Below, in pieces: positions 17,791 to 55,564 of a DNA stretch of 64,000 bases. The notes beneath the pieces were generated by a model. That model was not told where the DNA came from. It saw nothing but the letters and a program-made list of their open reading frames with translations, and searched no databases. The number at the start of each line of letters is the position of its first letter. Position 1 is the first letter of the stretch. Position numbers and translations under genes: made by a program. Source of the stretch: Marsupella aquatica (lineage: Eukaryota > Plantae > Marchantiophyta); the NCBI GenBank assembly GCA_973895155.1, contig OZ316896.1, forward strand, positions 7,697,278 to 7,761,277. The letters run 5' to 3'.

Positions 17791-18162
17791 CGTTGGTTAA
17801 AATGACGATAATACATTTTTTGTCATTTATCACCGTTGTCCAAAATGATGCAAATAGATTTTTTGGTTATTTCAGTCATTGTCCAGAGTGACTATAATGT
17901 TGCTAAACACTGATTTATCATTGTTGTTATTAATTGTGTCATTTAAGACATGTGTCTAAATTGACCATTTAGGGAAATTGGGTCATTTTGGTCGCATCAG
18001 TCATTATAGACATTATACAAAATGACGAAAAAATTAACATTTTGTCATTTCAGTCTATTGGTCATTGTGGACAGTCATTCCCCCGTCATTCTTTTTGTGT
18101 CATTAAAACTTTTGGTCATTTATTCATCTCTGTCATTGGGTGATTGGTCATAAAGGGCCCTG

Positions 18163-25978: not shown

Positions 25979-25983
25979 CTGGG

Positions 25984-31065: not shown

Positions 31066-31075
31066 CACTACAACA

Positions 31076-33230: not shown

Positions 33231-36200
33231 TGTGGTGCGTCCCATGGCTCCCTAAACCCAAGAAACCCCCCAGCTCAAGCCGATTCCCGCAGGTTTCGCG
33301 CTTGGCGAGGCCGTTTCCGCGGCTTAGCGGCATGGGACGCTGCTAACCTTCTACTACTACTGTTAACATTTTACACACATATACTGGACAGATCCTTCAT
33401 CAGGTCATGAGATACGTAGCCGGCCTAATCTAGGCCTTCCCCTGTCTTCCCCTCCGTCTTGTTAGGTATGTTTGGATTCCGCCGCCGGAATGATCCCCAA
33501 TAGGCTTGGTTAAGCCGCTAAGACCTCTCTCAGCTCAACACATCCAACTCTCACTCCCCTGCTTACTTTCCTTCCTTCTGTTGATGTGGGCACTCTTCAC
33601 ACAAGTTAATGCGACACACAAATAGCAAAATGACTCATTCTGACTGAGTCATACCATGCACTTGCCATACAAACAGTACATCTCATACACAAGCTCTGCG
33701 AACTAAGCCGTGAGGCCAACTCTATTCAGCTCTTAGGCATGAGGAAACATGAATATACACAAGGGTCACTGTATGACTAACCGAGAGCTTCTCGTACTAC
33801 TTGATCCCAGCCCGGCTGGTGCAAACTAAAAACTTGCTAAAGAAGAGGCCCTGAGCTCCCCGCTGCCCAGGTACTTATCCTGGTAGTGGATCCGCCATTC
33901 TTTGCATCGTAAGCCTAATCTACCTAACAGTAATCTACTTGCCCGAATCTACCTATGTACAGCAAGGCAGGAGCACAAGTGTTGCTCCTACCAGTGAAAC
34001 CGCAATCCCACTAAGCTAAGTGTCAGGGCCGCTCCTGGTCCTGATCCTAATCCTAAACTTGGAGATCAGCGCCCGCCCTGCCCACTCACGCCTCCTCCCT
34101 CCACGTCCGCCCTCCCTAAAAGGAACGGCGCCCTTGCACCGTCACGACACCGGTGGAGGATCCTTAATGGACGCCCCCAACGCTTCCTCCTCAGCCACTG
34201 CCGTAGGTTCATTCTCTGACAGATTACCTGCCCTTGACTGAGTCAACTCTCCATCGGCTTGGCAGGGTCCACCATCGGCGTCGGCATCGGCTCGGGAATC
34301 GGTTACGGCCTCAGCCTCGGCTACGGTCTCCCCGGCCTGCTCAAGAGGCGGATCTGGAATACCGGCCTCATTACTGAGTAGTTCGGCTTGGGCCGCACCA
34401 CCCCCACCTGTGATGATAGCGGGATCTATTGCCGTATTCATGCCGGAGGATGGTGCTGGTTCTACCTCCTTGGTCACCACGGCTTGTGGAGTCGGATTAC
34501 TCCTTGACCCTGAAGGTTTCCGCTTTTTCTTCTTTTCTGGTTCGGCAGTTGGTCCCTTCCCCTTCCCACTTACTTCCGGCACTGGTGCAGGTGGCGCGGC
34601 TTTTTCTTCGGCCAGTACCACTCCTGGTAACTTGGTTGCCCCAATTGGAGTTGGGCCTGATGAAGACAAGCACTTAAATACTGCGGCTTGTTTCTTCAGC
34701 CGCTCCGTTTGGTTGTCGGCCCGCCGCTGGAGGTTCTCCATCTTCCTTGTGATTTCCTCCAACTCCTCCTGGGTCTCATCCAGGTCCTTGCGTGCCTCCT
34801 CTAGTTCCTTCTGGGCTTCCTCCCGTTCTTGTTTCAAGGTAGTCCTCTCCTCCCGGGTTGCTCTTAGCTCCTTGTCGAGCTCTGCAATGATGACAGACTC
34901 CATCTGGTTCATCTTGGCGTAAGTCTGATCGAGCATCTCATCCTTCTCCCTTAGGTCGGCCTTGAAGCTGGCCATCAGGGACGCAAGCTCCTGCTGCAGC
35001 GCCATAATCCCTTGATAGGATTTCCCTAACTTGGCCTCCTTCTGCTCAAGGGCTCCACGGATTTTCTCGAGCTCCCCCTTCAACGCCCATTCCTTCAGGG
35101 ACGTGATGGTCCGACCCATAGCCGGAATTATCATGGCTGCAGTCCTCCACTGCCTCCTCTACTTCTTGGCCGTCCGGCTTCTCCCTCTCCTCTTCGTCCG
35201 TAGGAGCTTCAGGCAATTCTGCCTCAGATTCGGAGCTTGAGATTCCCACATACATTCGAACACCTGGCTTGGATTCCGGCCTGATTCTCTCCTTGTCTCC
35301 AGCAAAGGGGTTTTCTCTTGTGAGCCGGTGTAGGCCTACCTTTGTAGTAGTGTCCTGCATTGTTGCCGTTGCCGTTGTTGTTGTCGATGCCGATTTCTTT
35401 TCTTTCTCCAGTAGTTTCAGCAGACTCTACATGCCTGGTTGCTGCATTGGCAAGTCCTCCTTCGTGGGCCTAAACACCTGCTCGATCGTAGGGCTAACAG
35501 GTGGTTGAGGCTTCTCAGCCAACGGCCTCGGCGTTGGAGCTTCCTCGGGTGCCCTTACCTGCAGGGGAAGTACTGGGGCAAAAGTCTGACCTCTGGCATA
35601 CCGGCACAACAGCGGCATGTGATAGCCAAGCCGCGACACGCTCCCCATGCCGATTACCTGCTGATCCTCCTTTAAGATCTTCTTCAATTGGTTGAGGAGG
35701 TACCCGTTGTAGTCCCGGCTTGGGTCTGGCCTTTCTGCCAGATAGACCTGTGCCTTGCCGATCTCTGCCCTCGGCAAGTTACAATGCATGGTCACCCGCA
35801 AGAAGTCGATCATCTCTCCTATGTGCGGGTTGGTGCAGGTGTTCCGGAAGAAGCCATTCTTCGTTGATGGCCCGGGGAACGACCGGAACTCCTTGTCAGG
35901 CAAGGTCTTCCTGGCATCAACTTTGGTCTTATTGCCTATCGGCAAGCCAAACACTTCGGCAATTACCTTGGGAGTAAGATAGAAATCCTTCCCATATATC
36001 CTCGTGCAATTGGTCTCGGGTTCCCATGACCCCACGAATTCTAATAGGTGTGACTCCGGTACCTCCGGCTTCAGCCATGGTAATCTTACAAAGGCCTCTA
36101 AGCCGGATCCGGCCATGAAGCCTTGATACTTCTTGGTCTGCATTGCCGTAAAGCATGCATCCTCCTCACGTGCAAAATGTAGTTGCACTTCCACCGGTAG

Positions 36201-37114
36201 GGTTGCCGTCCAGCCCTTCCAGGTGTCATCCCTGGTTGGAATGGCCTTGATGGGATCGACCTCCTCCTCTTCGGCTTCTCCCTGCCTCCTGCTCTGCTGC
36301 TCGGCTGGCTTCTTTGGTGCCGCCGACCTCGTTCTTTTTGCCGGGGTGGCTTCATCGTTGACGGCTCCCTTCCTCTTCATCTCTGCTGTCGTGGAGGTTT
36401 CTCCTAGCACCGTTGCCTGGGTCCACCTTTCCGTGCTACCCTTTAATTCCCAGTGTATGTCGTTGCAGTTCTTGATGGCCTCTCGGATGCCGACGACGCT
36501 GTCTTTGCAAAACAGAAGATCGTCGAGTTGATTGGAGGTAGGCGTCCACAGGAACTCGTCCTTGATGAGTTCGCCTCCTAAGAAAGCCGTCTTCTGCAGC
36601 TCCCACAATCGAGCGAGCTCCTGCCGTTCTCGAGCTGCCCTTTCTGATTCCTCGTCCTCGTAAGTCTTGATGTACTCAGTAAGTTGCCCGTTCGAACAGG
36701 CATCCCCAGAAATGTGCCGCTTGATTGACGTTGCTCATACCCTCCTTAGGTCGATCGTCGGTATCTACTCTCTCCCTGAGTGCTTGCCTAAGCAGCTGAC
36801 AGTAGTTGGCCTCCCGTAGTCGTCTGCCTAGTTCGTGCTCGCAAATGAGCCACCATCTCCTGCAAGCGCTCCTTACCCCTCTCCTCTGCCGGTCCTTCTT
36901 CCCGTTGATCCTTCCTAGCCGCCGATGCTTAACGCGCCCTAACCCTAATCGAGTTTTCACCCTCAGCGTCCTTACCTCCGGCCTCGGCCCGGGTTCCATG
37001 GTTGCCCCTAATGGTTTATATTTTCCTTGTTTTGTCCCTATACTAAGGTGTTCCTAGGGTGCCTTCCTGCTTTACCCACTTAACTGGCCGAGTGATTCCT
37101 GTCTAGGCATCACA
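33231..37114 (-). repeat. 3' LTR, 3884 bp (about 0.78-kb internal deletion at ~35095)
   Basis: Colinear with 43339-48001 except for loss of ~45205-45991. Confidence 0.95.
34142..36738 (-). pseudogene. LTR-encoded ORF, 3' LTR copy (4-bp insertion ~36680, stop 35427, internal deletion)
   Basis: ORFs 35427-36608 and 34142-35134 are near-identical to the 5' LTR copy. Confidence 0.85.
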
Positions 37115-40100
37115 TAGCTCCCCACTTAATTGTGAAGCGTCCTCGCGAACAACTTCATCTTCGTCCATATAGTATTTCTTGAGGCGGTCATAATGGATGC
37201 GAACTGGATATACCTCTCCCGTAATGTTGGCCAATTGTACGGAGCCATTGGGGAACATCATGGTTACTCTAAAGGGTCCTAACCAGCGAGTGTAAAGCTT
37301 TCCTCGAAACCTACTATACCTACTGTCATAAAGTAGCACAAGATCACCGGTATGAATACTAACTACTTTTAACCTTTTATCATACTGTTGCTTCATGATA
37401 TTCTGTCTATATTCTACTCTCTCGGCTGAAATCATTCTCGCCTCCTCTAAAGCTTCTAACCTATATTCTCGCTCCTTTAGGCTCTCCTCCGCTGAGGCTC
37501 TTTCCTCAATTGTAACTTGAAATGTCGGTATCTCAAGTTGCATGGGTACCAGGGCTTCTTGTCCAAAGGTTAAGAAGAAGGGTGTATGACCGGTAGTGGA
37601 TTTATAGGCAAGATTGTAAGCAAAAACAGCAGCAAACAATTTATCATCCCAATCGAGTTTGTTCTGAGCTACTGTCTTGTTCAATATCTTTCCTATAATT
37701 CCGTTTGCTCGTTCTGTCAACCCATTTGCCTTTGGATGGTAGGGAGTAGTAGGCCTATGTTTAACTAAATACTGCTCATTTAAATGACTAATTATATCAT
37801 TCAAAAAATGGGTTCCTCTATCACTAACTAATTCTAGGGGTGCTCCATACCTGGTGAAGATCTGCTCATACATGAATCTAGCCGTAGTAATTGCATCATC
37901 CTTCGTTGTTGGTCTGGCCTCTACCCATTTAGTTGCATAATCCGTAGCCAGGATTATGTACTTGTTCCGTCGAGGGTGGGTCAGTGGTTTCAGAGGTCCA
38001 ATGTAATCAATACCCCACTTCTCGAATGGTGCCAGAGGTAGAATAGGGTGCAGTGGATGTCTGGTGGACGCCCTTGGTCCTCCCGCTCGTTGACAAGGAT
38101 CGCATTGTTTGATAAACTGATAGACATCCTTGTGCAAGGTGGGCCACCAGTAACCGGCATTTAATATCTTCTTAGACGTGGTTACTGGGGCAAAATGTCC
38201 TCCGGCCTCCTCTCCATGCATGGCCCGTAGGACTCGTTTTACCTCTCCCTTTTCCAAACACCTTTGAATCGTGCCGTTGATTCCATGCTTGTGCAGTATG
38301 CCTTTAATGCACTGATACTGTCTGACCTTCCGCACAAAGACTGCGGCTTGCTCTCGGTTTAATCCTGGCTGTAATCTGGAAGTGCTGAGAAATTGTAAAA
38401 TCTCAGGGTACCATGTATCAGCTATTTCCACAACGAATAGCTCCTCGTCGGGGAATCGATCATCGATGCAATCCGTGGCAGGTTTACCTGTGATCCTTGA
38501 AAAGAAGTCGGCATTGGCGTGTAACTTTCCCGGCTTGATCCTCAGCTCATAGTCAAACTCCTGTAATAGCAAAATCCATCTTGCTACTCTGCCTGTAAGG
38601 TCCGGCTTATTGACTAGGTACTTCAAACTTTCATGATCGGTATGAAAGATTACCTTGTACCCTAGTAAATAATGCCTAAACTTTTTACAAGAATAAATGA
38701 CTCCTAATGCTTCTCTCTCTGTGGTGGAGTAGTTCCGTTCGGCATCGGCAAGCTGACGGCTTGCAAAGTATATGGGATGGTCCATTCCTTTCTCATCCAA
38801 CTGACTTAGTGCTGAGCCGATACAGAAGCCCGAGACATCTACAAAAACATGAAAATCTTTGTTCCAGTTCGGTGCTATCATGACTGGGGCCTCTACTAAC
38901 ATCTGCTTCAATTCTACCACCGCTGTGACTCGTTCGGGTGTGGGTTCGAAGTCTGCTCCTACCTTGAGCATGTTGGTTAATGGTAAAGCTAGCTTGGCAA
39001 AATCCTTGATGAACCGGCGATAGTAACCAATGCATCCCAAGAAGGATCTTACATCCTTTATGTTCTTAGGTTGCATGATATCTAGCCATACTGCTAGCTT
39101 ACCTTTGTCAATCTCAATGCCCTTCCTTGATACCTTGTGACCTAGTAGCACCCCCTCGGTTACTGCAAAGAAACATTTATCTGGGTGTAACTTGAGACCC
39201 ACCTCTCTACATCTCATGAAGGTTTTCCTGAGGTATTTAGCATGTTTCGATGCCTTCCCGAATACTGCAAAGTCATCAATGAAGATTTCCATGAACTTTC
39301 TCAAGTAATCATGAAAAATGTTCACCATTAATCGTTGAAACATAGCTGGTGCGTTGCAGAGTCCAAACGGCATACGATTGAAGACATAGATCCCCCATTC
39401 CGTGATGAAGGCCGTCTTGATATGGTCTTCCTGCCGAATCCTGATTTGGTTATAACCAGAGTATCCATCCATGAATGAATATAGTTCATGACTGGCTACC
39501 ATGTCTAGTACCATATCAGTAAACGGTAAAGGAAAATGGTCTTTTAATGTTGCTTCATTCAGCTTCCTGTAATCCTGACAAACCCGGATCTTGGGTTTAC
39601 CATCGGGTCCAGCTTTCTTGGGAACTATCACAATTGGAGACACCCAGTCTGAATGCAGGACTGGAGTGATGAATCCAGCTTCCACTAGTTTGTCGATTTC
39701 TGTTTTGACCAGCAGGGAATACTTCGGGTTCATCCTTCGAATTGGTTGTCGAAATGATTTGGCTCCTAACATGAGATCAATTCGATGTTCCCCTAGTGTT
39801 GGATCTACTCCCTTTAGATCTTGGTGACTCCATGCAAACACATCCTGAAATTCAATCAATAAGTCACTGATCTCTTTCTCGAGCTCAGGTGCTAGGTTTC
39901 TCCCTAAGTTCAGTTCTCTTCCCTCTCCTAAGTCGAGCTTCCGATATTGCCGTGCTTGGATCATATTAATCTGCTTCTTCAAATTCGGGTCCAGTTTGGC
40001 TTCCAGTCTCTCCAATCTCATACCTCCATAAATTGGAATCTCGGCTGGACTAGCCGAGTCGGTCCCTTCCTTGGTGTCCATAGATTGTCCCCTTGCCGGT

Positions 40101-40369
40101 CTATTCGGTTTTGAATTGGTGGTCGGCTCCCCTTCCTGCCTTGGCTCTGGATTGTGTCTGTCCATCTCATCCACGTCTTGCTCCTGAGAGTCAGGCCGCT
40201 GTGCTCTCTCGGCTTCTAATAGGGCCTCAATTTGTTCTGCCCTCGTAATCGGCTTGTATGCCGATCCCTTGGTATTTAATTCCTTGCCGATGATCGATGG
40301 CGTTGTGAACCCTACCGGCTCTGCCACAACGCCTGCAGAAAATCCACTGTCCCTGCTACTGCTCCCCAC
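37103..40369 (-). CDS. pol: Gypsy Pol (RT-RNase H-integrase); stop codon lies just inside the 3' LTR
   Basis: WVSPIVIVPKK, DYRKLN, MDGYSGYNQI, FIDDF, FVDVSG, HTDHESL, H..H/CDPCQR, WGIDYIGP, SDRGTHF, NGLTER, WLGPF. Confidence 0.95.
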   Translation of the reverse strand: MGSSSRDSGFSAGVVAEPVGFTTPSIIGKELNTKGSAYKPITRAEQIEALLEAERAQRPDSQEQDVDEMDRHNPEPRQEGEPTTNSKPNRPARGQSMDTKEGTDSASPAEIPIYGGMRLERLEAKLDPNLKKQINMIQARQYRKLDLGEGRELNLGRNLAPELEKEISDLLIEFQDVFAWSHQDLKGVDPTLGEHRIDLMLGAKSFRQPIRRMNPKYSLLVKTEIDKLVEAGFITPVLHSDWVSPIVIVPKKAGPDGKPKIRVCQDYRKLNEATLKDHFPLPFTDMVLDMVASHELYSFMDGYSGYNQIRIRQEDHIKTAFITEWGIYVFNRMPFGLCNAPAMFQRLMVNIFHDYLRKFMEIFIDDFAVFGKASKHAKYLRKTFMRCREVGLKLHPDKCFFAVTEGVLLGHKVSRKGIEIDKGKLAVWLDIMQPKNIKDVRSFLGCIGYYRRFIKDFAKLALPLTNMLKVGADFEPTPERVTAVVELKQMLVEAPVMIAPNWNKDFHVFVDVSGFCIGSALSQLDEKGMDHPIYFASRQLADAERNYSTTEREALGVIYSCKKFRHYLLGYKVIFHTDHESLKYLVNKPDLTGRVARWILLLQEFDYELRIKPGKLHANADFFSRITGKPATDCIDDRFPDEELFVVEIADTWYPEILQFLSTSRLQPGLNREQAAVFVRKVRQYQCIKGILHKHGINGTIQRCLEKGEVKRVLRAMHGEEAGGHFAPVTTSKKILNAGYWWPTLHKDVYQFIKQCDPCQRAGGPRASTRHPLHPILPLAPFEKWGIDYIGPLKPLTHPRRNKYIILATDYATKWVEARPTTKDDAITTARFMYEQIFTRYGAPLELVSDRGTHFLNDIISHLNEQYLVKHRPTTPYHPKANGLTERANGIIGKILNKTVAQNKLDWDDKLFAAVFAYNLAYKSTTGHTPFFLTFGQEALVPMQLEIPTFQVTIEERASAEESLKEREYRLEALEEARMISAERVEYRQNIMKQQYDKRLKVVSIHTGDLVLLYDSRYSRFRGKLYTRWLGPFRVTMMFPNGSVQLANITGEVYPVRIHYDRLKKYYMDEDEVVREDASQLSGELCDA
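37115..37128 (-). promoter_or_regulatory. Polypurine tract
   Basis: TAAGTGGGGAGCTA directly before the TG of the 3' LTR. Confidence 0.85.
40286..40345 (-). promoter_or_regulatory. Putative -1 programmed ribosomal frameshift signal
   Basis: G GAT TTT in gag frame, 5-nt spacer, stem GGCGTTGTG/CACAACGCC, loop GCCGGT complementary to downstream ATCGGC; pol is in the -1 frame. Confidence 0.75.
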
Positions 40370-43269
40370 TTAGCCGTTTCATCCAATTGGTCTACATCCT
40401 TTACTTCCTCCGGAATTGCAGCTAAAAAGGTGGATTCTATTGTAAAGCAGTCCTCGACCTCTTCGTCTTCTTCTTCCAAGTCACCTTCCATTGGTTCTTG
40501 CCATAATCCGCTGGGGGGTACCTCTGGTCCAAAGACACTTTCTTCGGTTAGGTCAGTGAGGCATTCTAACCAACGTACTTCATCGGCTGACTCCAGTCCA
40601 CTATCGTACCCATCTACTTCCCTTATGCTTTTCCTACGGTCATCCTTAGTGTCCCAGGATACCGTGATAGAGGGGGTCCCGAAAGTGAACTGCTTTTTAC
40701 CCCAATCTTCTATTACCTCGGCTAGGTACAGCCATGGCCTACCAATCAATAGCCGGAATGACGTAGGATTTACCGGCTTCATTACTACATAGTTAATGCT
40801 AAAGAAGATACCTCCTATCTCTGTCTTGATGCCGGTTAACACTCCCGTGGGAATGACCTGATATCCATTGGCCATGTTCAACACTCTTCCAGTCATCTCC
40901 GGTGTTAGACCCCACCCTTTTGCTGTTGAATCAATCATAATACATACCCCTAATCCTCCATCGATGGGTACCCGTAGTAATAATTCTCCTTGAATCATTA
41001 ATGGTAATGCTGGGGCTCCTTGATCTTCTTCTATCATTAGTACGTCGGATCTGGTTGCTACTTTGGGTAATCTCGGCTTGCCGAGAATAGCCTTCCTTAA
41101 TTGCTTCCGGAAGTACGGGCTATTTTTCAATAGTTGACCTACTGTTGCCGAGACTCTAGATTCTAGTACATCTTTAGCCAGGTCATAGGGAACAATCGGC
41201 TTCTCCTCTGGTGGTGTCTCCGTCTTGGATTCGGCCAGTTTTGCCACGCTAGTCTCCACAGCTGTTGGGTCTTCCGAAGCAAACAATGCTTTTGCTCGTT
41301 TTACATCCTTGGCAATGGCTTCGGTATTCTCCAGGTTTTCTAATTCTCTTAGTTGTTCCTTAACACTAGCCGTAACAGAGGGGTAGAACAACTTAGGATG
41401 ATCTCGATTGAAGTCGCTATCTTGTGAAGGATTGGGTTCACTGGTGGGCTCATGGCTTACCTGTATTGCCGGAGCCCTCCCTTCTCCTTCCGTTGATGTT
41501 GACGAAGAGTCGATCTTTTCCTCCGTAACCTTCCCTTTATTTTTGGCCAGCCCATCCCACCTTTCCTTCCTTCTGGTAGATCGAGTAGAGACCCGGTAGC
41601 AATCATGATCTAAATCCTCCTCTGAGAAGGTTGATAGGGCTTCGGCCTCATCATCAGATGGTACGAACTCTGCCTCGGCATCCTCTTGCCATCCTAGTTC
41701 GATGTGGTTGATTTGAACTCCTCCGGGGGTAGTACCTGGCGGTAAGATCTTGACCGGCAAAAGTTTATGATTTGCGGCCAGGCTTGCCAACCAAGTAGGA
41801 CATTGCCCTAGCATATGACCTTCCTGTCGGCATCCCATACATAGCTGAGCTGGTTGTCCATCACCCTGTTTGCGTGCATTCGGGCATTCTCTAGCAAAAT
41901 GGCCAGGTTGACCACAATTATAGCACGCTGCAAATCTTTGCACATTCGGCCTAGGAGGTACTGACGGGTTCTGAATAATCCGAGGATACATCTCTCTTGG
42001 ATTGTTCCTTAACCCTGACCATAGAGATGCAGGTCTGTTGGATAGGTCTCGTGCTCCAGTCTCACTGATGCCAAAAACACTATCAGCGGCATCTCCTAAA
42101 AAGTACTCTACTTCTCCCTGACATGGTCTGATCTCGGCCACATGCCGAACATGATTAGTATTAAGCTTAGGACACGCATCTTTATGGTGTCCGGTTTTAT
42201 AACATAAGGCACACCATACAGAGCTATCCTCCTGTACTACCTTCTTCTTTGGTTTTACCTCTGCAATGATAGCCTTAAGTTGCTCGGTAAGGGCTACGAT
42301 GTTATCTGGTGGCTTAGCCTCCAACTTGACTTTCATCTTTCCTCTCCTTCTGCCCTTCCTTTTGGTAGTTTTTTCTTCTTCAGAACTAGAAGATGACTCA
42401 CTCTTGCTACTCCCACTATCCGAGCTTGACTTATCACTTCTAGACTTCTTAGAATGTTTCTTCTTCTTATCTTTTTTCTTATGGGGTGATCCCTCTTCTG
42501 ATGAGGAACTCTCAGACTTAAGCTGTTTCTTCCGGCTTGTGATATCTGCATTAATGTATAATTGAATATCCTTAATTGCTTCGGCTAAAGTCTCCGGGTT
42601 CTCCTTCCTAATTGCAAAACTCATCTTCTGTGGCAAAGCATTCACCAACCATTGAAGTTGCATACCTTCAGATGCATTGGTCTTTGTACGTCTTACCAGT
42701 TTCTGAAAGCGTTGCAAGAACTTCCTGAAGGATTTGTTCTCCTTGAACCGAAGTCGTCCCAACTTCAGCACTGCTAGTTCTGAAGTTCCAATGGGTCGAA
42801 ACTCCTTAACAAAGAGTGTTTTGAAGATATCCCAGATGGCTTGATCTTCCACATCTAATGCTCTGTACCAAGGCCTAGCCTCACCCTTGAACAGGCCGGG
42901 AAGAATCTACATCTTGATGGCCGATTCTCCATTTGCTGCAGCGGTTCCCTCGAAATCATCCAACCATTCGTCCGGATCCTCATCTCCTCTCCCATGAAAT
43001 GCCTTGTAATGTATGCGCGACCGCTGGCTCAATCTGGTCCCTGGCCTCTCGTCTGGCCGTGCCTCTGGTTCCCCCATGTCGGTTGGAGACTCACTTCTCC
43101 TTACCGACTCTTCTTCTGGTATGTCTTCTTCGACGCCACTTCCAGTTTCGGAGCTACCAGCTCTTTCTGCCCCTCTCAGTCGCTGTGTATCATGCCACCC
43201 GGCGAGCTGCTGTAGTCGAGCTCTCTCCCGTTGAATCACTCTTTCTTCCCTCGGCGTAAGGTCAGTCAT
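40312..43269 (-). pseudogene. gag: Gypsy Gag-protease with three CCHC knuckles; in-frame TAG at 42907
   Basis: FHGRGDEDPDEWL; CALCYKTGHHKDAC, CYNCGQPGHFAREC, CMGCRQEGHMLGQC; protease PIDGG and LLIGRPWL. Confidence 0.9.
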
Positions 43270-43315
43270 TACCTACGCTTCTGTTCTAACTTCATATCTC
43301 ACGGCTTAAGAAATG

Positions 43316-43334
43316 CCCCCTCCATCTAGCGCCA
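43316..43334 (-). promoter_or_regulatory. Primer binding site, tRNA-Asn type
   Basis: TGGCGCTAGATGGAGGGG, one mismatch from the complement of the plant tRNA-Asn 3' end (CCCCTCCTTCTAGCGCCA, recalled). Confidence 0.75.
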
Positions 43335-43338
43335 AAAA

Positions 43339-46300
43339 TGTGGTGCGTCCCATGGCTCCCTAAACCCAAGAAACCCCCCAACTCAAGCCGATTCCCGCAG
43401 GTTTCGCGCTTGGCAAGGCCGTTTCCGTGGCTTAGCGGCATGGGACACTGCTAACCTTCTACTACTACTGTTAACATTTTACACACATATACTGGACAGA
43501 TCCTTCATCGGGTCATGAGATACGTAGCCGGCCTAATCTAGGCCTTTCCCTGTCTTCCCCTCCGTCTTGTTAGGTATGTTTGGATTCCACCGCCGGAATG
43601 ATCCCCAATAGGCTTGGTTAAGCCGCTAAGACCTCTCTCAGCTCGACACATCCAACTCTCACTCCCCTGCTTACTTTCCTTCCTTTTGGTTGATGTGGGC
43701 ACTCTTCACACAAGTTAATGCGACACACAAATAGCAAAATGACTCATTCTGACTGAGTCATACCATGGACTTGCCATACAAACAGTACATCTCATACACA
43801 AGCTCTGCGAACTAAGCCGTGAGGCCAACTCTATTCAGCTCTTAGGCATGAGGAAACATGAATATACACAAGGGTCACTGTATGACTAACCGAGAGCTTC
43901 TCGTACTACTTGATCCCAGCCCGGCTGGTGCAAACTAAAAACTTGCTAAAGAAGAGGCCCTGAGCTCCCCGCTGCCCAGGTACTTATCCTGGTAGTGGAT
44001 CCGCCATTCTTTGCATCGTAAGCCTAATCTACCTAACAGTAATCTACTTGCCCGAATCTACCTATGTACAGCAAGGCAGGAGCACAAGTGTTGCTCCTAC
44101 CAGTGGAACCGCAATCCCACTAAGCTAAGTGTCAGGGCCGCTCCTGGTCCTGATCCTAATCCTAAACTTGGAGATCAGCGCCCGCCCTGCCCACTCACGC
44201 CTCCTCCCTCCACGTCCGCCCTCCCTAAAAGGAACGACGCCCTTGCACCGTCACGACACCGGTGGAGGATCCTTAATGGACGCCCCCAACGCTTCCTCCT
44301 CAGCCACTGCCGTAGGTTCATTCTCTGACAGATTACCTGCCCTTGACTGAGTCAACTCTCCATCGGCTTGGCAGGGTCCACCATTGGCATCGGCATCGGC
44401 TCAGGAATCGGTTACGGCCTCAGCCTCGGCTACGGTCTCCCCGGCCTGCTCAAGAGGCGGATCTGGAATACCGGCCTCATTACTGAGTAGTTCGGCTTGG
44501 GCCGCACCACCCCCACCTGTGATGATAGCGGGATCTATTGCCGTATTCATGCCGGAGGATGGTGCTGGTTCTACCTCCTTGGTCACCACGGCTTGTGGAG
44601 TCGGATTACTCCTTGACCCTGAAGGTTTCCGCTTTTTCTTCTTTTCTGGTTCGGCAGTTGGTCCCTTCCCCTTCCCACTTACTTCCGGCACTGGTGCAGG
44701 TGGCGCGGCTTTTTCTTCGGCCAGTACCACTCCTGGTAACTTGGTTGCCCCAATTGGAGTTGGGCCTGATGAAGACAAGCACTTAAATACTGCGGCTTGT
44801 TTCTTCAGCCGCTCCGTTTGGTTGTCGGCCCGCCGCTGGAGGTTCTCCATCTTCCTTGTGATTTCCTCCAACTCCTCCTGGGTCTCATCCAGGTCCTTGC
44901 GTGCCTCCTCTAGTTCCTTCTGGGCTTCCTCCCGTTCTTGTTTCAAGGTAGTCCTCTCCTCCCGGGTTGCTCTTAGCTCCTTGTCGAGCTCTGCAATGAT
45001 GACAGACTCCATCTGGTTCATCTTGGCGTAAGTCTGATTGAGCATCTCATCCTTCTCCCTTAGGTCGGCCTTGAAGCTGGCCGTCAGGGACGCAAGCTCC
45101 TGCTGCAGCGCCATAATCCCTTGATAGGATTTCCCTAACTTGGCCTCCTTCTGCTCAAGGGCTCCACGGATTTTCTCGAGCTCCCCCTTCAACGCCCATT
45201 CCTTTCTTTGGGTCTCCGCCATGGCCCGGCTGTTGGCTGTTATGTGGGCCTCCTCTGTATTCTTCAGCTCTTGCTTCCACTTCTCCCTCTCTTTGATCGT
45301 GTCGGCCAACTCTCCCTGCGTCTGAGTCAGTTTATCCTTGATATTCTGATTATCAGCCTGCGCGGTGTCCAACTGCCCCTGCATGATGTTCAGCTCATGC
45401 CGTTTAATCCGTAGTTCATCTTGGGCTTTCTTGGCCGCCCTTAGATCTTCAATCTCGGCTTCCATCCTCCTAAGCCGCCGAATGACCTCGTCCTTCTTGC
45501 TTCTCTCTAAAGCCACCGCTTCTTCTAATTGGTGCTTCTCCAACTGCTCCCTATGGAAAAAGGGTCCTACCTCCAACTCCTCTCCAAAGATGCCGAGCGC
45601 AAGTTCCCCACACATCTCACCATACTCCATGGCTCTATTCTTAGCGTAGGTGGAGTAAGTAGAAGTGATCGGCATCGCCCATCGCGGCCTCTGCTCCCAA
45701 GCCGTCTTGCGGATCTCTTCAATCGTGGCTAGAGGTTTGCTTCCTTTTTTGGCTAGCCGCCCGATGTCCTCCGGCCAATCTCCTCCTGGTAAATCCTTTT
45801 CCCTAGCCAGGGCTGCCTCCTCTTCCTGCCTGATTCGCTCTTGAAATTCCTGCACCGTCTGTTTTATGCCGTCAAAGCTCGGGGGAGCAACATCTGGTGG
45901 GGGAGACTCAGGGCTACTCTGCTGGTTGGGGTCCCCTCACACTACCCTTGGAAGTGTGGGGACAAACCGGCCACAGGTCCTTACTCCTGGAACGTGATGG
46001 TCCGACCCATAGCCGGAATTATCATGGCTGTAGTCCTCCACTGCCTCCTCTACTTCTTGGACGTCCGGCTTCTCCCTCTCCTCTTCGTTGGTAGGAGCTT
46101 CAGGCAATTATGCCTCAGATTCGGAGCTTGAGATTCCCACATACATTCGAACACCTGGCTTGGATTCCGGCCTGATTCTCTCCTTGTCTCCAGCAAAGGG
46201 GTTTTCTCTTGTGAGCCGGTGTAGGCCTACCTCTGTAGTAGTGTCCTGCATTGTTGCCATTGCCGTTGTTGTTGCCGATGCCGATTTCTTTTCTTTCTCC

Positions 46301-48001
46301 AGTAGTTTCAGCAGACTCTACATGCCTGGTTGCTGCATTGGCAAGTCCTCCTTCCTGGGCCTAAACACCTGCTCGATCGTAGGGCTAACAGGTGGTTGAG
46401 GCTTCTCAGCCAACGGCCTCGGCGTTGGAGCTTCCTCGGGTGCCCTTACCTGCAGGGGAAGTACTGGGGCAAAAGTCTGACCTCTGGCATACCGGCACAA
46501 CAGCGGCATGTGATAGCCAAGCCGCGACACGCTCCCCATGCCGATTACCTGCTGCTCCTCCTTTAAGATCTTCTTCAATTGGTTGAGGAGGTACCCGTTG
46601 TAGTCCCGGCTTGGGTCTGGCCTTTCTGCCAGATAGACCTGTGCCTTGCCGATCTCTGCCCTCGGCAAGTTACAATGCATGGTCACCCGCAAGAAGTCGA
46701 TCATCTCTCCTATGTGCAGGTTGGTGCAGGTGTTCTGGAAGAAGCCATTCTTCGTTGATGGCCCGGGGAATGACCGGAACTCCTTGTCAGGCAAGGTCTT
46801 CCTGGCATCAACTTTGGTCTTATTGCCTATCGGCAAGCCAAACACTTCGGCAATTACCTTGGGAGTAAGATAGAAATCCTTCCCATATATCCTCGTGCAA
46901 TTGGTCTCGGGTTCCCATGACCCCACGAATTCTAATAGGTGTGACTCCGGTACCTCCGGCTTCAGCCATGGTAATCTTACAAAGGCCTCTAAGCCGGATC
47001 CGGCCATGAAGCCTTGATACTTCTTGGTCTGCATTGCCATAAAGCATGCATCCTCCTCCCGTGCAAAATGTAGTTGCACTTCCACCGGTAGGGTTGCCGC
47101 CCAGCCCTTCCAGGTGTCATCCCTGGTTGGAATGGCCTTGATGGGATCGACCTCCTCCTCTTCGGCTTCTCCCTGCCTCTTGCTCTGCTGCTCGGCTGGC
47201 TTCTTTGGTGCCGCCGACCTCGTTCTTTTTGCCGGGGTGGCTTCATCGTTGACGGCTCCCTTCCTCTTCATCTCTGCTGCCGTGGAGGTTTCTCCTAGCA
47301 CCGTTGCCTGGGTCCACCTTTCCGTGCTACCCTTTAATTCCCAGTGTATGTCGTTGCAGTTCTTGATGGCCTCTCGGATGCCGACGACGCTATCTTTGCA
47401 AAACAGAAGATCATCGAGTTGATTGGAGGTAGGCGTCCACAGGAACTCGTCCTTGATGAGTTCGCCTCCTAAGAAAGCCATCTTCTGCAGCTCCCACAAT
47501 CGAGCGAGCTCCTACCGTTCTCGAGCTGCCCTTTCTGATTCCTCGTCCTCGTAAGTCTTGATGTACTCAGTTGCCCGTTCGAACAGGCATCCCCAGAAAT
47601 GTGCCGCTTGATTGACGTTGCTCATACCCTCCTTAGGTCGATCGTCGGTATCTACTCTCTCCCCGAGTGCTTGCCTAAGCAGCTGACAGTAGTTGGCCTC
47701 CCGTAGTCGTCTACCTAGTTCATGCTCGCAAATGAGCCACCATCTCCTGCAAGCGCTCCTTACCCCTCTCCTCTGCCGGTCCTTCTTCCCGTTGATCCTT
47801 CCTAGCCGCCGACGCTTAACGCGCCCTAACCCTAATCGAGTTTTCACCCTCAGCGTCCTTACCTCCGGCCTCGGCCCGGGTTCCATGGTTGCCCCTAATG
47901 GTTTATATTTTCCTTGTTTTGTCCCTATACTAAGGTGTTCCTAGGGTGCCTTCCTGCTTTACCCACTTAACTGGCCGAGTGATTCCTGTCTAGGCATCAC
48001 A
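43339..48001 (-). repeat. 5' LTR, 4663 bp
   Basis: TG...CA termini; PBS immediately internal. Confidence 0.95.
44251..47625 (-). pseudogene. LTR-encoded ORF, 1124 codons from MSNVNQ (1211 from the ATG at 47886), single frame with four nonsense codons
   Basis: Stops at 47512, 46318, 46108 and 44401 are all in one frame; PMD-like LLEFVGSWEPETNCTRIYGKDFYLTPKVIAEVFGLP, long heptad coiled coil, KKKKRK NLS-like tract. Confidence 0.88.
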
Positions 48002-50289
48002 CGTACATAAGCCTTCAACACCGCCATGTAACGCTCAAGCCAATACATCCATCTACAATGCACTCGACCTGCAATGGCAACCTCCCGCACAAGATGCACA
48101 AGTAAATGAACCTGACAATCAAAGAAGGAAGGAGGAAGGGCTTTCTCCAACTTGCATACCACCTCAGCTGCCAATACCTCCATCCCAGGGATCTCTTCTA
48201 CATATATCTCCTTTGAGCATATCCATCTCAACAAACGACCCAATGACCAGATGGCATCTTGCACTTCTTCACTCCCTATACCTATAATTGCCACTGGCAA
48301 TATATGCTGCAATAGGCGATGATAGTCATGTGTCTTCAGATATCATGGCCACTTGTGATTGTCCTCCATCCCAAAAGCTTTTCGAAGGTTGGCACCATAG
48401 CCTATAGGAAACCGCATCTCTCCTATACGGTTCCGAAATTCACGTCTTTGGCCAACACTCAACACCCAAGGAGCAGAAGGACGATTCTCCACACCTGTGA
48501 TAGGATCAGTTGTCACCCAAACATCTGGATGCATTTCCATCTCCTCGCATGCCTCCCTAAAATTAGTGTCCTTCTCCCCATAAAAATGCTTTATCAAAGC
48601 CTTCCCCACATTTCCCTCTATGTGCATGGGGTCTAAAAGATGGCGGATCTTCAACTCAGACCAATAGGGCAAAGTGGCTGGTATACTCCACCTGGTCAAA
48701 CCTGTCCTATCAAAGGTGAAGGAATCATTTGGGTCTGCCACCCTATCAGCTAGTGACTTCCAATGTGCAAAACTTGTTGCATTAGGAATTTTACGCTCAT
48801 CACCAAATGGCATGTCAAAGGAGGAGAATAGAAGTGGGTCAAACCTCATCTCATGCCCCATGGGAAGAAACTTTGTATGCCCAATATAAACAATCTTTCT
48901 AATCCATGAACAATATGTGGCCATGTCCTCTAAGCTTGGGCCACAAGTAGAGCAAGCTTTGTACCCCTGAGTTTGCAATCCAGAGACAAAACCAAACCCT
49001 GCTTACATAGAAGAAATCAAACCATGCAAACTTTATGTTAGGGTTGTCACATGAGAAACAACAATAGGAACTACACATTATTGAAGGGTTGCAAATGGCA
49101 TGGAAGTCATCTTACCAGGATAGTCATGCATTGTCCAACAAATGATCCCTCTCAATTGAAAGACACGTGGAAAACCACCTGTAATTTTCCTGCCATCATA
49201 TGCCCACACTCCATTCCATAATTTTTGAAGTTCTCCAACCAATAGTGCCAAGTAAGTGTCAAAGTTCTTCACCTTTTTTGGACCTGGGATAATCAAAGAC
49301 AATAAAAGGAACCCCTTCTTCATGGATAGCCATGGTGGGAGGTTATAATTCATGACAACCACAGGCCAAACTGATGTAGGTTGCCCCTTTCCTCCAAGTG
49401 AATGAGGGCTAACTCCATCAGATGCCAATCCTAGCCTCACATGGCGAGGATCATGTGCAAAGTCTGGCCATGTTGCCTCAATATGTTTGTGAGCAGGGGA
49501 GTCAACTGGCAACCGCATGACACCAGACTCTGATCGATGAGTCTTATGCCATACCATCAACTCTGCCAAGTCAGAACACCGATACATGTGCAACAACCGA
49601 GGAATGATGGGAAACCAATGAACAGCCTTCCTTGGCACCTTCTTTGTTAGCATGTTGGGGTCATAGCGAGGCTCATCACATGTTGTACATTGTGTCATGT
49701 TTGCATTGGCCCCATGAAATAACATGCAATCATTCACACATGCATGAACAATATGATATTCCATGCCAATAGATGAGAGAACACTCTTTGCCTCCTTCCA
49801 AGTTGCTGGCAACACATTCTCAGTGGGTAACATAAGGTCATGGCAAAGTGCAAACATATCAGATAACAAGGCATTGCTTGCCTTGTGTTTGGCCTGTAGG
49901 TTCATCAACCCCAAGATGGCTAAAAGATGACTCAAACGAGCACCCTCATAGATAGGTGTTCGGGCATGTTCCTCTGCTTCTTCCCATTGGCGTTGTCCCT
50001 CAGGGGTATGTCTTGGGCGTGGATCATTGGGGGGCACCTGCCCTTCATTGGGAAGGTCATCACCAGGGTTGTCGGCACCAAACCAATCAACCATGAAGTC
50101 ATCCATGGCTCTATCCTGGTCATCAGTTACTTGTTCATCCGTCTGAGGTACCTCTTCATCAGGGTTACTGCTTCCACTAGCACTTGATGAGGAGTGTGAC
50201 TCTGATCCATGTCCTTCTTCTGGCATACCCATTTCTCGATATGTTGCTCTCAATCTCCGTGGTAACATATTTGGAGAGGGTCGCACATT
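48002..50289 (-). pseudogene. CACTA-2 transposase central exons (Transposase_21, DUF4218); predicted intron 48999-49115; premature TGA at 48343
   Basis: HACVNDCMLF, WFPIIPRL, LGLASDGVSP, NYNLPPWL, WTMHDYPG|FGFVSG, LDPMHIEGNV, LKTHDYH, PPSFFDCQVHLLVHL, WMYWLERYM. Confidence 0.92.
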
Positions 50290-50465
50290 CTAAAAACAAA
50301 GCAAACAATTGAAAGTTATATTGCAAAGAGAACACACACAAAAATGGGCTAGGGGTGTGCAAAAATGAAATAATATTGGTTGTGGTGCAAATACAAAATG
50401 TGGCCAAAGGCCATATGTAGTGTCCTTTGATATGCAACATACCACCTATGACCCTTAACTTAACC

Positions 50466-51281
50466 CTAATCCCACTCATAGTGAGTAAATAACTCATCCC
50501 CTGAGTTAATGGTCCTCGTCGCTACAACTAGGCAATGGTCATGATGATATGTCTGGCCATAAGATGCTGGCGGAGGACCCTCAATGAAAACCCACTCACA
50601 ATTTTGCCTACGCTTAGGGCGAGTCCCCACGGTACTGTTTATGAAACCAGCAATATTCCCAGTCCGTATGGGGTCCCCATCTATGACACGCTGCTCACTA
50701 TACCTTCTAGTGTTTCCATCAAAAGTATCCATGTCCAATGCATAAGTCTTCCACTCAGGGTGTTGTGCAAGGATCATGTTCCAATGTCTTCTCTTGTAGA
50801 TGGGTCCACCATAAGGAAACAAAGTAGGCCCCTCTCGGCCGCGTCCACCTCTACCACTCTCGGTGTCCACAATGATGTCCTCACAGGCAAAAACTCCATA
50901 GCCATGTCTATCCCCAAGTGTGGAAGGTTTGATAATCCAACGTCTACCCCAAACCTCTACCTCCGCACCGTAGGAAACCTGTTGTGGCAAACCAAGAGTC
51001 TCAGGATCCCAGTCCTTGATGATAGGGACACATCTGCCAGTGAACTCACAATCACCCCACCTCCCCATAACCACTGCCTTGTACAAATCAGTATCCCCTC
51101 GGGCCCGCCTCTTGGAATGCTTTCTCCCTCTTGGGACAATAGCCTCAACCCCAACTTCCCTAGGACTGGTGGGCCTTGCCGCTAGACCCAAGGCTTTTGA
51201 GAATGCATTGCCTATAGCATCTAGAACACCTTGTGATGGGACATAGGGTGCTTGTGCCGCAGGTCTAGGCCTATTGGATAC
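50466..51281 (-). CDS. SET-domain (lysine methyltransferase-like) terminal exon inside the first transposase intron
   Basis: GYGVFACEDI, PYGG, IDG..GNIAGFINS, NC, VVATRTINSGDELFTHY = SET motifs in order; open from the phase-0 acceptor at 51281 to the stop at 50466. Confidence 0.88.
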   Translation of the reverse strand, partial: VSNRPRPAAQAPYVPSQGVLDAIGNAFSKALGLAARPTSPREVGVEAIVPRGRKHSKRRARGDTDLYKAVVMGRWGDCEFTGRCVPIIKDWDPETLGLPQQVSYGAEVEVWGRRWIIKPSTLGDRHGYGVFACEDIIVDTESGRGGRGREGPTLFPYGGPIYKRRHWNMILAQHPEWKTYALDMDTFDGNTRRYSEQRVIDGDPIRTGNIAGFINSTVGTRPKRRQNCEWVFIEGPPPASYGQTYHHDHCLVVATRTINSGDELFTHYEWD

Positions 51282-51384
51282 CTATTCCACCGAAACCAAA
51301 ACAAACAAAAGTAGGTGTGAAATTAAAAACCTTCAACCATTGAGTAATGGGAATAGGGTAGGAAAACTAAGGCATAACACTTAC

Positions 51385-51618
51385 CATATGAGATGAAGAA
51401 GCCCCTGCCGTATGACGTCCACAACGCCCATATCTCTCAATATGTTGGGCACATATGTAAGATTTTTGGGAAACCTGACCCACACATCTGGAACATTCAC
51501 AAAGTTGACGGGGTGGACCGCGAGGAGGAGGTGCGGTCGTGTGATGTTGAGGTGGAGGTGGTGTATCTTCATCAGAGGAGGACGAGTCTGTGGTGGAGAT
51601 TTCAAAAGATGAAGACAT
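51385..51618 (-). CDS. Predicted shared first coding exon of CACTA-2 (transposase-associated CxCxxC..H motif)
   Basis: LCECSRC...AQHIERYG; ends at the phase-0 donor ATG|GTAAGT (51385/51384). Confidence 0.7.
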
Positions 51619-52918
51619 ATCCCCTGTAATAAGATATAATTAAAATGGGCATGTTATGACCAAAACATACCACAAAATGATATAAATCAAAGTTCCCAAA
51701 TAATGATGACAAGAAACCCAAACCAAAATGACCATAGCAATAAAAAAGGTACCTTTATGAGACCCGGGCTCAGCAGTGCCAATAGGTCTTGTGGCTCTAA
51801 GATAATTAATGAACCCAATCTGAAAGTATGAGGGAAAAGCTGCAACCATTCCATGTATATGTAAGCACAATAAATTGGACCAGACAAGAACAAAAAACCC
51901 TATATACATGTCCCCTTTATACATAGTGGCAACCAAAAGTGTTAAGTACATGAAAGGAACACTTGAGCCGATCATGCAATGTTTACCTTTCAGATGCCCG
52001 GGCTCTCACAATGCATATGCATTAGTATCAAATCATCAAAAAGTGTCGCACCCTGCAAGCTATCATATATTCCCCTCCTTTGTTAGCAAAACCCATGCCA
52101 ATCCCTTTTTGATTCATAAACCCAATGAACCTCTCTTAAACCCAAAAGGCTGCAATATAAATCTCATGAAACCTTGCTTTGTCTTATCCAAACCTTCAAC
52201 CCCAAACCGCATCCTACCTATTAAACCTAAATCTGACTTACACACAAACCCAAACCTTTCTTCAACCCTAGAGACCTTTCTATTTAAAAACCCCAAACCC
52301 TAAAACCCTAAACCCAAACCTTACTTATTTCTTGTAAACCAAATCCCACACCTTTATTATTTCTTCTAAACTAATGTAAACCCAAACCTTAGCCTAAACC
52401 AACACCATACATAACCCATTAACCTGAAATCTGCCTAACCCTTCAAACCCGCCTTCAACTATTATCTAACACCCAAAACATGGCCAAAAAGCATTCCAAA
52501 TATGAGTATAGAGGGGTCCACTTCACCTTTGAAAAATACCCTTTCAAATGAAACCAACATTCCCCCCAGGACGAGTTGCCAATGTCTTGCAAAGCCGCTT
52601 CCTTCGCAAATACCGTCACAAATTAGAATTGAGTTTTGCGAAGCTGCTGCTTTCGCACGACCTTCAGAAAAACAGAGCCCGAGAGCATTTCTACGAGAGA
52701 GCAAAGGTGTTGCGAAGCCTTTCACGTCGCAATGGTTTTGCAAAATTGAGAAACTACATGCGAAACTAAAAGGATCGCAACTTGCAAAACGGGTTGCTTC
52801 GCAAGTCTTTCCCGCTTGTACTTTTGCACTCGGCCGCGGCGTACTCAGCGGCATTTGACAAATTTCAAGCGTAGGGAGGGAGAAGGGAGCTCGCGCGCGC
52901 TTGGGGGGTGGCTTAGCT

Positions 52919-54886
52919 ATGGATTCCAGTGGAGCAAATGGAGGTGATGGGGCAGGGGTGAGTGACAGTGGCAATGGGAATGAAGGCAATGGGGAGCAGG
53001 AGAGGAATCGATGGACCAATTTGATGGCTGAGCACCTCAATGTAGCACAGTTGAGCCACTTAGATTTGACTACACCAGCAAAGATTGCTTCTTTGAGTGC
53101 AATCCTAGGGCAAGCCTTGCAAACGGGAGTAGATGCAGGGAACATTGCAAGGCAGGAGGAGCAAAGGAGTGCAGCTCAACAGAAGGTAAGAGAGAAGAAG
53201 CGTAAGAAGGAGGAGAGGGCCAAGGCAGGAGTAGTCTCACCTGCTGCCCTAGAAAAGAAGAGGAGGAGAGAGGAACGAGATGAGATAAGAGCACAGCGGG
53301 AGGAGCAGCGAAAGAAGGAGGAAGAGAGGAAGAAGCTGCCTATGATTGCCTTGATCGAAGGCATTCCTACTTAACTGGCCTACACCGGGGCAAAGAGCAC
53401 TATCAGGCTTATGGTGCGCTCCAATTTTGCACGAGGAGTTGAGTGGGGGAAACTCAGCAAGGCAGACCAGAAGAAAGTAATGAGTCAAATCAAAGATTCA
53501 TTTCGAAATGGAGCAGAGATTGATGAATAGTGGCTTGCAGATAGAATTTCCAATTCAATGTCTCAAGCACGGTACCATGATAGGAAGAAGGTAAGGGCCT
53601 ACCTAGAAAACTTGGAGGAGTACAGAAACGTGAGGAGGCCACTGCAATTCACTGAGGACGTGTGGAATGCCTTTTACAAAGTGGAGGTGCAGATGAGAGC
53701 TTCCAGGAACCTTCTCTTCTGGAAGGAGATGGAAGCCAAGGCACAGAAGGCCGGGAAGTCCGACCGAGACCTCAAGGCAATGGCTGAGAAGGTGTCTCAC
53801 ATGCAGCACATTGTGGATGAAGTGGGGGCACCAGCCCAAAAATTCATCCTTGCAGCTGAGCGAGTCAGCAAACGGCCCAAGACCATGCACAAGATGGGCC
53901 AAGGTGGACTTCCCGGCCTCAAAGCACACTTTGTGAGTGGGCCCTCTCCTCCCCTGCTTCTGTTTCCTTGCTTTCAATTGCTATCCAAACCTACAATGCC
54001 CCCCCTGCATACCTCTTGTTTCTTTCTTACGGCTTGCCTTGTACATTAGGTCACCCTGACACATTGCGTGCCTTAGAGATTTCTCGGAATTTTTTAAAAA
54101 TAGAGTTTGCGAAGCTTTTGCGATGCGGGTTGCTTCGCAAATGTTTCGCAAAGTCTATCATAGCATTTTTTAAAGTTGTAGATGCGAAGCTATTGCGAAC
54201 TAACCCGCTTCGCAAAGTACTTCGCAAGCAGCCAATTTATTTGAATTTGCGAAGTGGGGCGTTTCGCAAGTGTGTATTATGTTTAAAAAATACTGCTAAG
54301 GGTTATTGAGCCCAATTTTGTGTTCTAGGGGGCACCCTATTAGCACCTCCATGCATTTTTCTTGGGTTTATAGCATATTAACCTCGATCGATTTTGGTTT
54401 TGGAATGTTTGGTTGTGGTAGTATAAGAGGTACCGCAAGAAGATAACAGCAAAAGAGATGGAGATAGGAGCTGCGCATGGAGCCAAACATCTCTTTGACT
54501 TGGTTGACGCAGAGTTGGCGACTGTAAGTGCATGTATCCCCTTCAGTTTTTCCCACCCAATCCACTTATCTTTTCATTCCGTAAACCTAAACCAATTTGG
54601 GGTTGTGCTGTGCAAACAGGATGATGAGGATGCCAGTGATACCAGCAGCACCGATGAGAACAATGAGGGGACCACGACAAAGGGGCCCAAGGTAGGAGGG
54701 AGTAGTGGATCTGGACCAGTAGGAGGAGTTTCCCAGCAGGAGGGGGAGGAAGAGGATGAGGACGAGGATGAGGAGGAACCAGATGTGGAGGAGCAGCCAA
54801 CACCACCTCCTGTGCCACGTCCGGATCGTCGCAAGAGGGACAAGGGGAAGAGGTCGGCGTCAAGGAGTAGGAGGACCCCATTCTAG
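52919..54886 (+). pseudogene. TnpA/Ptta-like second CACTA-2 gene; predicted exons 52919-53932, 54422-54523, 54620-54886; two premature stops
   Basis: One frame through TAA 53372 and TAG 53528; RRPLQFTEDVWNAF and MHKMGQGG resemble Transposase_24 motifs; all splice junctions GT-AG and phase 0; acidic/basic tail. Family assignment is tentative. Confidence 0.65.
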
Positions 54887-55139: not shown

Positions 55140-55551
55140 ATCTTGCGAAACCTATGCGAACAACCCAAATCGCATATTTACCATACTGAAGGTATCGCAA
55201 ACATTATGCAAACCACATAAGTTCACAAAAATGTGAAGCGATCTTCATGGCATAACTACCATTCACTTAATATCGCAAACATATTACCAAACTCCTGGGA
55301 TTGCAAATATTTAACTGCTTGATTATTATCGCAATCCTCTCGCGACGCCCACGAAGTCGCTTAAATGTGAGTCCTTTGCGATTCTATTAGTGTCACAAGT
55401 TGCGAAGGCGTTGCGAAGGTCTTGCGAAAGACCGGATGCGAACCTTTGGGCTTTGCAGTTTGCGATGCGCGATACTTCGCAAGAACGAGTTTTGTTTTTT
55501 GATTTCCTTTGTTGTTTGCGATGCTTTCAAGTTCGCAAAAGGTGTAGGTAG
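55140..55551. repeat. CACTA-2 right subterminal region with dispersed TCGCAA/TTGCGA motifs
   Basis: Same motif as the left end, e.g. 55143, 55195, 55273, 55400, 55411, 55422, 55477, 55533. Confidence 0.75.
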
Positions 55552-55564
55552 TGTTGTAGTGGTT

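Follow-up and report, generated by a model that had tools for sequence, protein, structure and literature searches.

A CACTA transposon family of mosses and liverworts with a SET-domain exon nested in its transposase gene

In the CACTA transposons En/Spm and ATENSPM3, TnpD and TnpA are produced from one gene by alternative splicing (bioRxiv 10.64898/2026.08.24.746577; PMC13547354), and the first of these reports demonstrates an anti-silencing activity of the Spm regulators. The main text of neither report mentions a SET domain. Here we describe a CACTA element of the liverwort Marsupella aquatica that carries a SET-domain exon inside its transposase gene. It lies in a 64,000-nucleotide stretch of contig OZ316896.1 (assembly GCA_973895155.1, positions 7,697,278 to 7,761,277 of the forward strand), which we call the window and in whose numbering all positions are given. 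The element belongs to a CACTA family of mosses and liverworts in which the SET exon is nested between the first and the catalytic transposase exons. Judging from the conserved splice sites, a single donor is very probably joined alternatively to a near or a far acceptor. We put the whole chain, in which one transcript gives either the transposase or a SET protein that methylates chromatin to the advantage of the element, at slightly under an even chance.

As with maize En/Spm and Arabidopsis ATENSPM3, the element has CACTA ends, a 3-bp duplication, a Tnp2 transposase and subterminal repeats, and as with En/Spm the transposase gene has a second product, here a predicted one, that is likely regulatory. 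The alternative product of En/Spm is the DNA-binding TnpA, which lacks an enzyme domain, whereas here it contains a SET domain; the present element also has its accessory gene as a distinct unit, oriented head-to-head to the transposase gene. Splicing likewise links SET to a transposase in SETMAR, a domesticated host fusion protein; the products predicted here are instead alternative ones, encoded on a mobile multi-copy element. A SET domain (PF00856) has been described in the CACTA superfamily before, in the PAG2 gene of red-algal Plavaka elements, for which a role as chromatin modifier was proposed (bioRxiv 10.1101/2025.02.11.637652). As presented in the passages of that preprint that concern it, PAG2 is a separate gene on a giant Plavaka and fuses SET to an N6-adenine methylase, whereas here SET is a lone exon within the transposase gene of an otherwise canonical CACTA of plants and PF00856 is the only such domain in both the SET exon and the full gene models; the comparison is one of layout and domain content, not of SET sequence homology. 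DNA transposons carrying SET genes are further known from HarbingerS and oomycete MuDR elements (cited in PMC12730594), which belong to other superfamilies and hosts, and SET capture by Helitrons is cited in bioRxiv 10.1101/2025.02.11.637652. VANC of the VANDAL elements is an anti-silencing factor that induces loss of DNA methylation (cited in PMC12730594 and bioRxiv 10.1101/2025.02.11.637652). Like VANC, the SET protein would be encoded by the element and would target chromatin of the element's own family, which is shown for VANC and proposed here, but VANC is not a SET enzyme.

An original prediction made on this DNA knew of no described CACTA family of this kind. We likewise found no report of the family, but the novelty is less than this suggests, given the published SET domain of red-algal Plavaka. 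The literature searched, which left uncovered Repbase Reports, most subscription journals and preprint supplements, contained no land-plant SET-bearing transposon, no nested-exon layout and no report of the family; a Repbase entry may exist.

The transposase gene is read from the minus strand. An ATG at 51618 opens 78 codons that run to 51385 and are followed by a GT donor at 51384 (ATG/GTAAGT). The near acceptor AG opens the SET exon at 51281, after an intron of 103 nucleotides (nt), and its 271 codons stay open to a TAG at 50466; the far acceptor AG opens the transposase frame at 50289. Both possible joins of the donor are in phase 0. The coordinates and phases originally proposed for one donor serving two acceptors hold throughout, as does the claim of an uninterrupted SET exon with its own stop. 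Use of the near acceptor would give a 349-residue protein with a zinc motif and a SET domain, ending at that stop, and use of the far acceptor would give the transposase. The SET exon of the window copy has no ATG before codon 72, so the SET product would need exon 1; the transposase would need it as well, because it would otherwise be without the usual N-terminal Cys/His motif. No AATAAA was found in the 176-nt spacer (50290-50465), where the SET form would end under the originally suggested splice/polyadenylation switch.

The motif in exon 1 is CxCxxC-x13-H-x4-G, as at the start of ordinary CACTA transposases (the transposase-associated domain). A CPCxxC lies near the N-terminus of 89 of 119 other CACTA transposases, and against a profile built from these 89 N-termini exon 1 gave an ungapped alignment of the Cys/His motif at 8.5 bits, a score that none of 200 shuffles reached. 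Ten of 13 family N-termini likewise outscored all 200 of their shuffles. In Pfam, the window exon 1 had no match to PF13963, the N-terminal transposase-associated domain, and the Riccia relative P0079 had a weak one (E 0.031). On motif evidence, the SET exon therefore appears to be placed after the N-terminal motif of the transposase itself and ahead of the catalytic core.

The SET exon is not confined to this copy and was found in relatives from Sphagnum, Calypogeia and Riccia and at 43 loci in a metagenome scan. A search with the exon returned 42 proteins, led by one from Calypogeia fissa (72% identity over the whole length) and including several Sphagnum species; one protein cluster among the matches has 360 members. 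Predicted gene models of Calypogeia and Sphagnum begin with an exon-1 homologue that is joined to SET at the identical junction. A profile search of 1.84 billion representatives returned 131 clusters at 50% identity, and the species-named entries among the 30 matches looked up were Riccia sorocarpa (11), Calypogeia (2) and one distant Ginkgo protein. Three Riccia gene models contain SET sequence followed by Tnp2, and the Riccia models in which SET runs into Tnp2 come from at least two SET clades. A search for longer proteins that contain the SET exon gave none, which is weak evidence.

The order of exons is also retained at the metagenome loci. The transposase lies downstream of SET in 24 of the 27 loci with at least 280 nt on that side, the three misses having a shortened SET, and exon 1 lies upstream in 20 of the 25 with at least 250 nt (four of the misses are 5'-truncated fragments and one is near a contig edge). 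The CACTACAAC end upstream of the accessory gene is reached in five loci. One contig of DNA run X1 spans the stretch from the SET stop to the transposase start, with 5 differences, at a depth of 542, compared with 19 in the flank; as far as depth can serve as a rough guide, this points to some tens of copies. For organisms E and F, joints linking SET to transposase were left out of the count, having 28-30 letters on their short side. In the Sphagnum-type transposase there is a gap of about 150 nt (L010:2627-2777; also L015, L026 and L032) where the window copy has none, which is likely an intron.

A quick SET tree, built without 13 of the 75 segments, which were close relatives, groups the window and Calypogeia copies, both from liverworts, with those of the moss Sphagnum in a supported set of 15 rows, and distributes copies of the liverwort Riccia over at least two clades that branch more deeply. 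This pattern may stem from horizontal transfer or from paralogous families of old standing. Distant members of the same SET clade, Calypogeia and Ginkgo proteins among them, have other N-termini (P0102, P0108, P0162, P0106, P0112 and P0120) and may belong to other elements or to host genes. P0050, a single frame of 423 residues on a Logan contig, combines the exon-1 motif with SET and represents either a spliced transcript or a relative that lacks the intron.

Across the family loci, the phase of the donor and of both acceptors has been kept. The donor GT occurs at the identical codon boundary in all 17 loci where exon 1 can be aligned to its end (3 more were unscorable), the SET acceptor is retained in 15 of 17, and the transposase acceptor AG is retained in phase in 21 of 24; these counts come mostly from one family, and the independent comparisons are few (the window, the Sphagnum-type family and L002). 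In the intron and spacer, the window and L006 agree at about 63%, and shuffles give 56-57%. It is improbable that there is no alternative splicing at all, with exon 1 and SET forming one gene and the transposase starting from its own ATG at codon 8, on a separate or re-spliced transcript. Every gene model that contains exon 1 does join it to SET, and the codon-8 ATG is present in the window and in all 23 loci where codons 1-14 are aligned, making an independent start possible. However, the AG has been kept at the same in-phase boundary behind a diverged spacer, codons 1-5 ahead of the ATG retain N-I/V-R-P-S through synonymous changes, and the transposase would lose a motif that most other CACTA transposases have. 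Production of a SET-transposase fusion, with SET as a cassette exon spliced onward into the transposase, is very improbable. Sphagnum and Riccia models (P0028, P0086, P0109, P0118) do join partial SET sequence to the transposase, but they break off at differing places; the stop directly after the last SET motif is conserved, and the best donor-like sites in the SET exon lie in phase 1 or 2 and would not keep the frame when joined to the phase-0 acceptor.

Several observations, together with the codon-8 ATG, weigh against the alternative use of one donor and what is built on it. By junction sequence, 42 of the 43 loci apparently belong to one Sphagnum-type family and only L002 to another, so the loci are not independent. 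The exon-1 motif is short and falls below the Pfam cut-off. No database gene model was found that joins exon 1 directly to the transposase, and P0188, the one family match among long proteins, includes SET sequence. The joints listed for contigs of 8 runs covering the introns, which are uninformative on expression, include no clean skip of either intron. In the Sphagnum-type transposase there is a gap of about 150 nt (L010:2627-2777; also L015, L026 and L032) where the window copy has none, which is likely an intron.

Selection was assessed from ratios of nonsynonymous to synonymous change (dN/dS), given as Nei-Gojobori medians for the window copy versus the loci. The SET core (residues 67-271) has a median of 0.216 over 25 loci, compared with 0.40 for the SET linker, 0.16 for exon 1, 0.10-0.16 for parts of the transposase and 0.32 for the accessory gene; all are upper estimates because they include neutral decay after insertion. 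The SET exon is hence not evolving neutrally, and the ratios support the view that it is held by purifying selection as a family-wide part of the element and would not be a passive capture. Neutral drift of a passively captured host gene fragment is accordingly the least probable of the explanations weighed here and is largely refuted: single copies do gain SET stops at about the transposase rate, but dN/dS is about 0.22 between families, the motifs are retained across the 131 clusters, and none of the 30 profile matches looked up pointed to a named host SET subfamily. In the same pairs (the window copy against L001-L032), the proportion of synonymous differences (pS) is 0.49 for the SET core (50469-51083) and 0.65 for the transposase core (49117-49960); splicing constraint or exchange of SET exons between families could explain the lower value.

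An intact SET exon beside a broken transposase had been offered as evidence in its own right, and this argument fails. Related copies carry 3.8 stops per 1000 codons in SET versus 5.0 in the first transposase exon, and in the window copy, where some 1500 other codons contain three stops, 0.54 would be expected in 271 codons, giving P(0)=0.58 for an exon free of stops by chance. Decay after insertion affects SET and transposase in the same way, so the contrast is not evidence. The nonsense codons themselves are partly borne out: the transposase has one (48345-48343) and the second gene has two, but a further transposase stop at 49078 is rejected as intronic (GT at 49115, AG ending 48999). The transposase is also split by a 14.8-kb long terminal repeat (LTR) retrotransposon insertion (48001-33231, 5-bp duplication).

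The SET exon matches PF00856 above the cut-off (E 4e-6). As predicted, it is a minimal SET domain in which N215-S216 replaces the usual NH and the terminal Tyr (Y268) is retained; the exon ends two residues after Y268, so there is no post-SET segment. The motifs of SET lysine methyltransferases are GxG, YxG, N-H/x..N and ELxxxY. We surveyed them in 46 relatives with less than 70% identity, drawn from the 74 of 169 matches that span the domain, plus the window. G127-x-G129 is present in 44-46 of the 46, N215 in 41, N227 in 46, E263 in 45 and Y268 in 43. The GxG, YxG, Asn and ELxxxY motifs are therefore retained, save that the His of NH is Ser and that Y157 is Phe in 14. S216 occurs in 44 of 46 relatives, so the Ser is a family trait. 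The residue two before Y268 is mostly small or aliphatic. Under the Phe/Tyr-switch rule a small or aliphatic residue at that position permits multiple methylation, which the family sequences would allow here.

A structure model calculated from 114 sequences gave the SET core a predicted local distance difference test (pLDDT) score of 92.5 and a confident SET fold; an input of 26 sequences gave 44. Foldseek matched the model to SET8 and LegAS4 (E 2e-7). The structural matches are tied at Z 11.7-12.1, with PRC2 and COMPASS at 12.1 and SET7/9 and SET8 at about 11.8, and the top matches align 124-133 residues at a root-mean-square deviation of 2.7 and 16-27% identity. Viral SETs match at similar levels, and Atlas also returns SET clusters. 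By sequence, a bacterial SET scores best (E 3e-9), with eukaryotic SETs behind it (E 2e-4 or weaker), and the named subfamilies (E(z), TRX/SET1, ASH1/SET2, SUV39, ATXR5/6 and SET8) are tied with none clearly best.

From its motifs and fold, the SET domain is probably active as a lysine methyltransferase dependent on S-adenosylmethionine (SAM). That the fold is kept without catalysis, to bind histone tails or SAM or to serve as a decoy for them, is distinctly improbable. The change of the NH His to Ser in nearly all relatives and the longer than usual loop that follows NS would fit such a role, but the family has kept the glycine motif, the Asn, the Glu and the terminal Tyr, and LegAS4, a SET domain solved with a bound histone H3 peptide, is likewise without a His after the Asn (NF, with Phe in its place).

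An active SET protein would act on chromatin at copies of its own family, recruited there by the shared N-terminal motif or by other proteins of the element, and the mark it writes would oppose host silencing. Given an active methyltransferase, such marking against silencing is the outcome we favour, if not strongly, and an anti-silencing role is likely but unproven. We offer more tentatively, and as rather doubtful, a self-targeted form of enzyme-based anti-silencing in which the splice choice would swap the catalytic core for a histone methyltransferase and the zinc motif would deliver this writer to the copies. The ties among PRC2, COMPASS, SET7/9 and SET8 count as a further point against an anti-silencing mark, since neither the substrate nor the direction of the effect can be read from the structure. 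With the same two splice products, the enzyme might instead write a repressive mark that limits the element or methylate a substrate other than histones, for example the transposase or accessory protein of the element, or a silencing factor of the host. This is unlikely, though to be taken seriously: the tied matches include repressive (PRC2, SET8), activating (COMPASS) and broad-substrate (SET7/9) enzymes, and PRC2 silences some liverwort and hornwort transposons, according to the part of the bryophyte H3K27me3 (histone H3 lysine 27 trimethylation) literature cited here (bioRxiv 10.1101/2022.10.24.513474). The characterised transposon regulators VANC and TnpA, in the accounts cited above, activate their own copies, which argues the other way.

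The proposed layout would tie the choice between moving and marking chromatin to a single splice decision. The family supplies a divergent, compact SET clade. If the proposal is true, an old CACTA lineage of bryophytes carries small histone methyltransferases of a single subunit that make up a new clade in land plants. For the SET genes known from transposons of oomycetes and red algae, the passages cited here report no test. The present family is small, multi-copy and conserved, and its hosts are related to the genetic models Marchantia and Physcomitrium, so that the writing of histone marks by a transposon on itself is testable.

The boundaries of the element, 55561 to 31066, come from inspection of the window sequence and bear out the predicted terminal inverted repeats (TIR) and target site duplication (TSD). 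The TIRs are short and start CACTA, with CACTACAACA opening both termini (55561 and 31066), and the 3-bp TSD is GTT on both flanks (55562-55564 and 31063-31065). Gene order is exon 1, the 271-codon SET exon and the transposase, and the length is about 9.7 kb once the LTR-retrotransposon block is subtracted. The subterminal arrays consist of TTCGCAA, of which 23 of 24 window copies (either strand) fall in four clusters, all inside the element: at both ends, between the two divergent genes and in the accessory-gene intron. The transposase is of the Tnp2/TnpD type (PF02992, DUF4218, DUF4216). Features are listed in Table 1.

Table 1. Features of the CACTA element, in window coordinates.
Feature	Position	Strand	Remarks
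5' TIR CACTACAACA	55552..55561	-	GTT TSD at 55562-55564
Subterminal TTCGCAA repeats, 5' end	55143..55538	.	7-mer clustering
Accessory gene, divergent	52920..54886	+	at TnpA-type gene position; three predicted exons, two stops
TTCGCAA cluster between the two divergent genes	52603..52804	.	likely promoter region (inferred)
Shared coding exon 1	51385..51618	-	78 codons; CxCxxC-x13-H-x4-G motif
GT-AG intron leading to SET exon	51282..51384	-	103 nt, phase 0
SET exon	50466..51281	-	271 codons + stop; variable linker ~residues 1-66, conserved core 67-271
Spacer	50290..50465	-	176 nt; predicted 3' untranslated region (SET form) or 3' end of 1095-nt intron (transposase form)
Transposase exon 2	49116..50289	-	Tnp2, PF02992 E 7e-39; in-frame ATG at codon 8
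Transposase exon 3, first part	48002..48999	-	PF02992, DUF4218; stop codon 48345-48343
Nested LTR-retrotransposon block	33231..48001	-	TG...CA ends, 5-bp duplication
Transposase exon 3, second part	32761..33230	-	end of DUF4218
Last transposase exon	32026..32515	-	DUF4216 E 1e-8
3' TIR and subterminal repeats	31066..31560	.	TIR 31066-31075; GTT at 31063-31065

The accessory gene, which is conserved, is read from the plus strand, head-to-head with the transposase gene, and has a counterpart in the same orientation at L034:386-1615 (-). It had been labelled TnpA-like, a label that homology does not confirm: no match was found in Pfam, in Atlas or by profile against 120 transposase proteins. Its stops in the window copy are the codons starting at 53372 and 53528, and other copies on DNA run contigs differ from the window copy at both, so these stops are private decay of this copy.

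Elsewhere, the window holds nested LTR-retrotransposon copies at 33231-48001 and about 20500-29600 with long extra frames upstream of gag-pol, among them 46318-47511 and a coiled-coil-like frame at 44401-45936. Tandem arrays with periods of about 577, 18 and 83 bases occupy about 7000-10700 and 15800-17800. Frames resembling a Ty1/copia element adjoin the CACTA element at 56864-61220.

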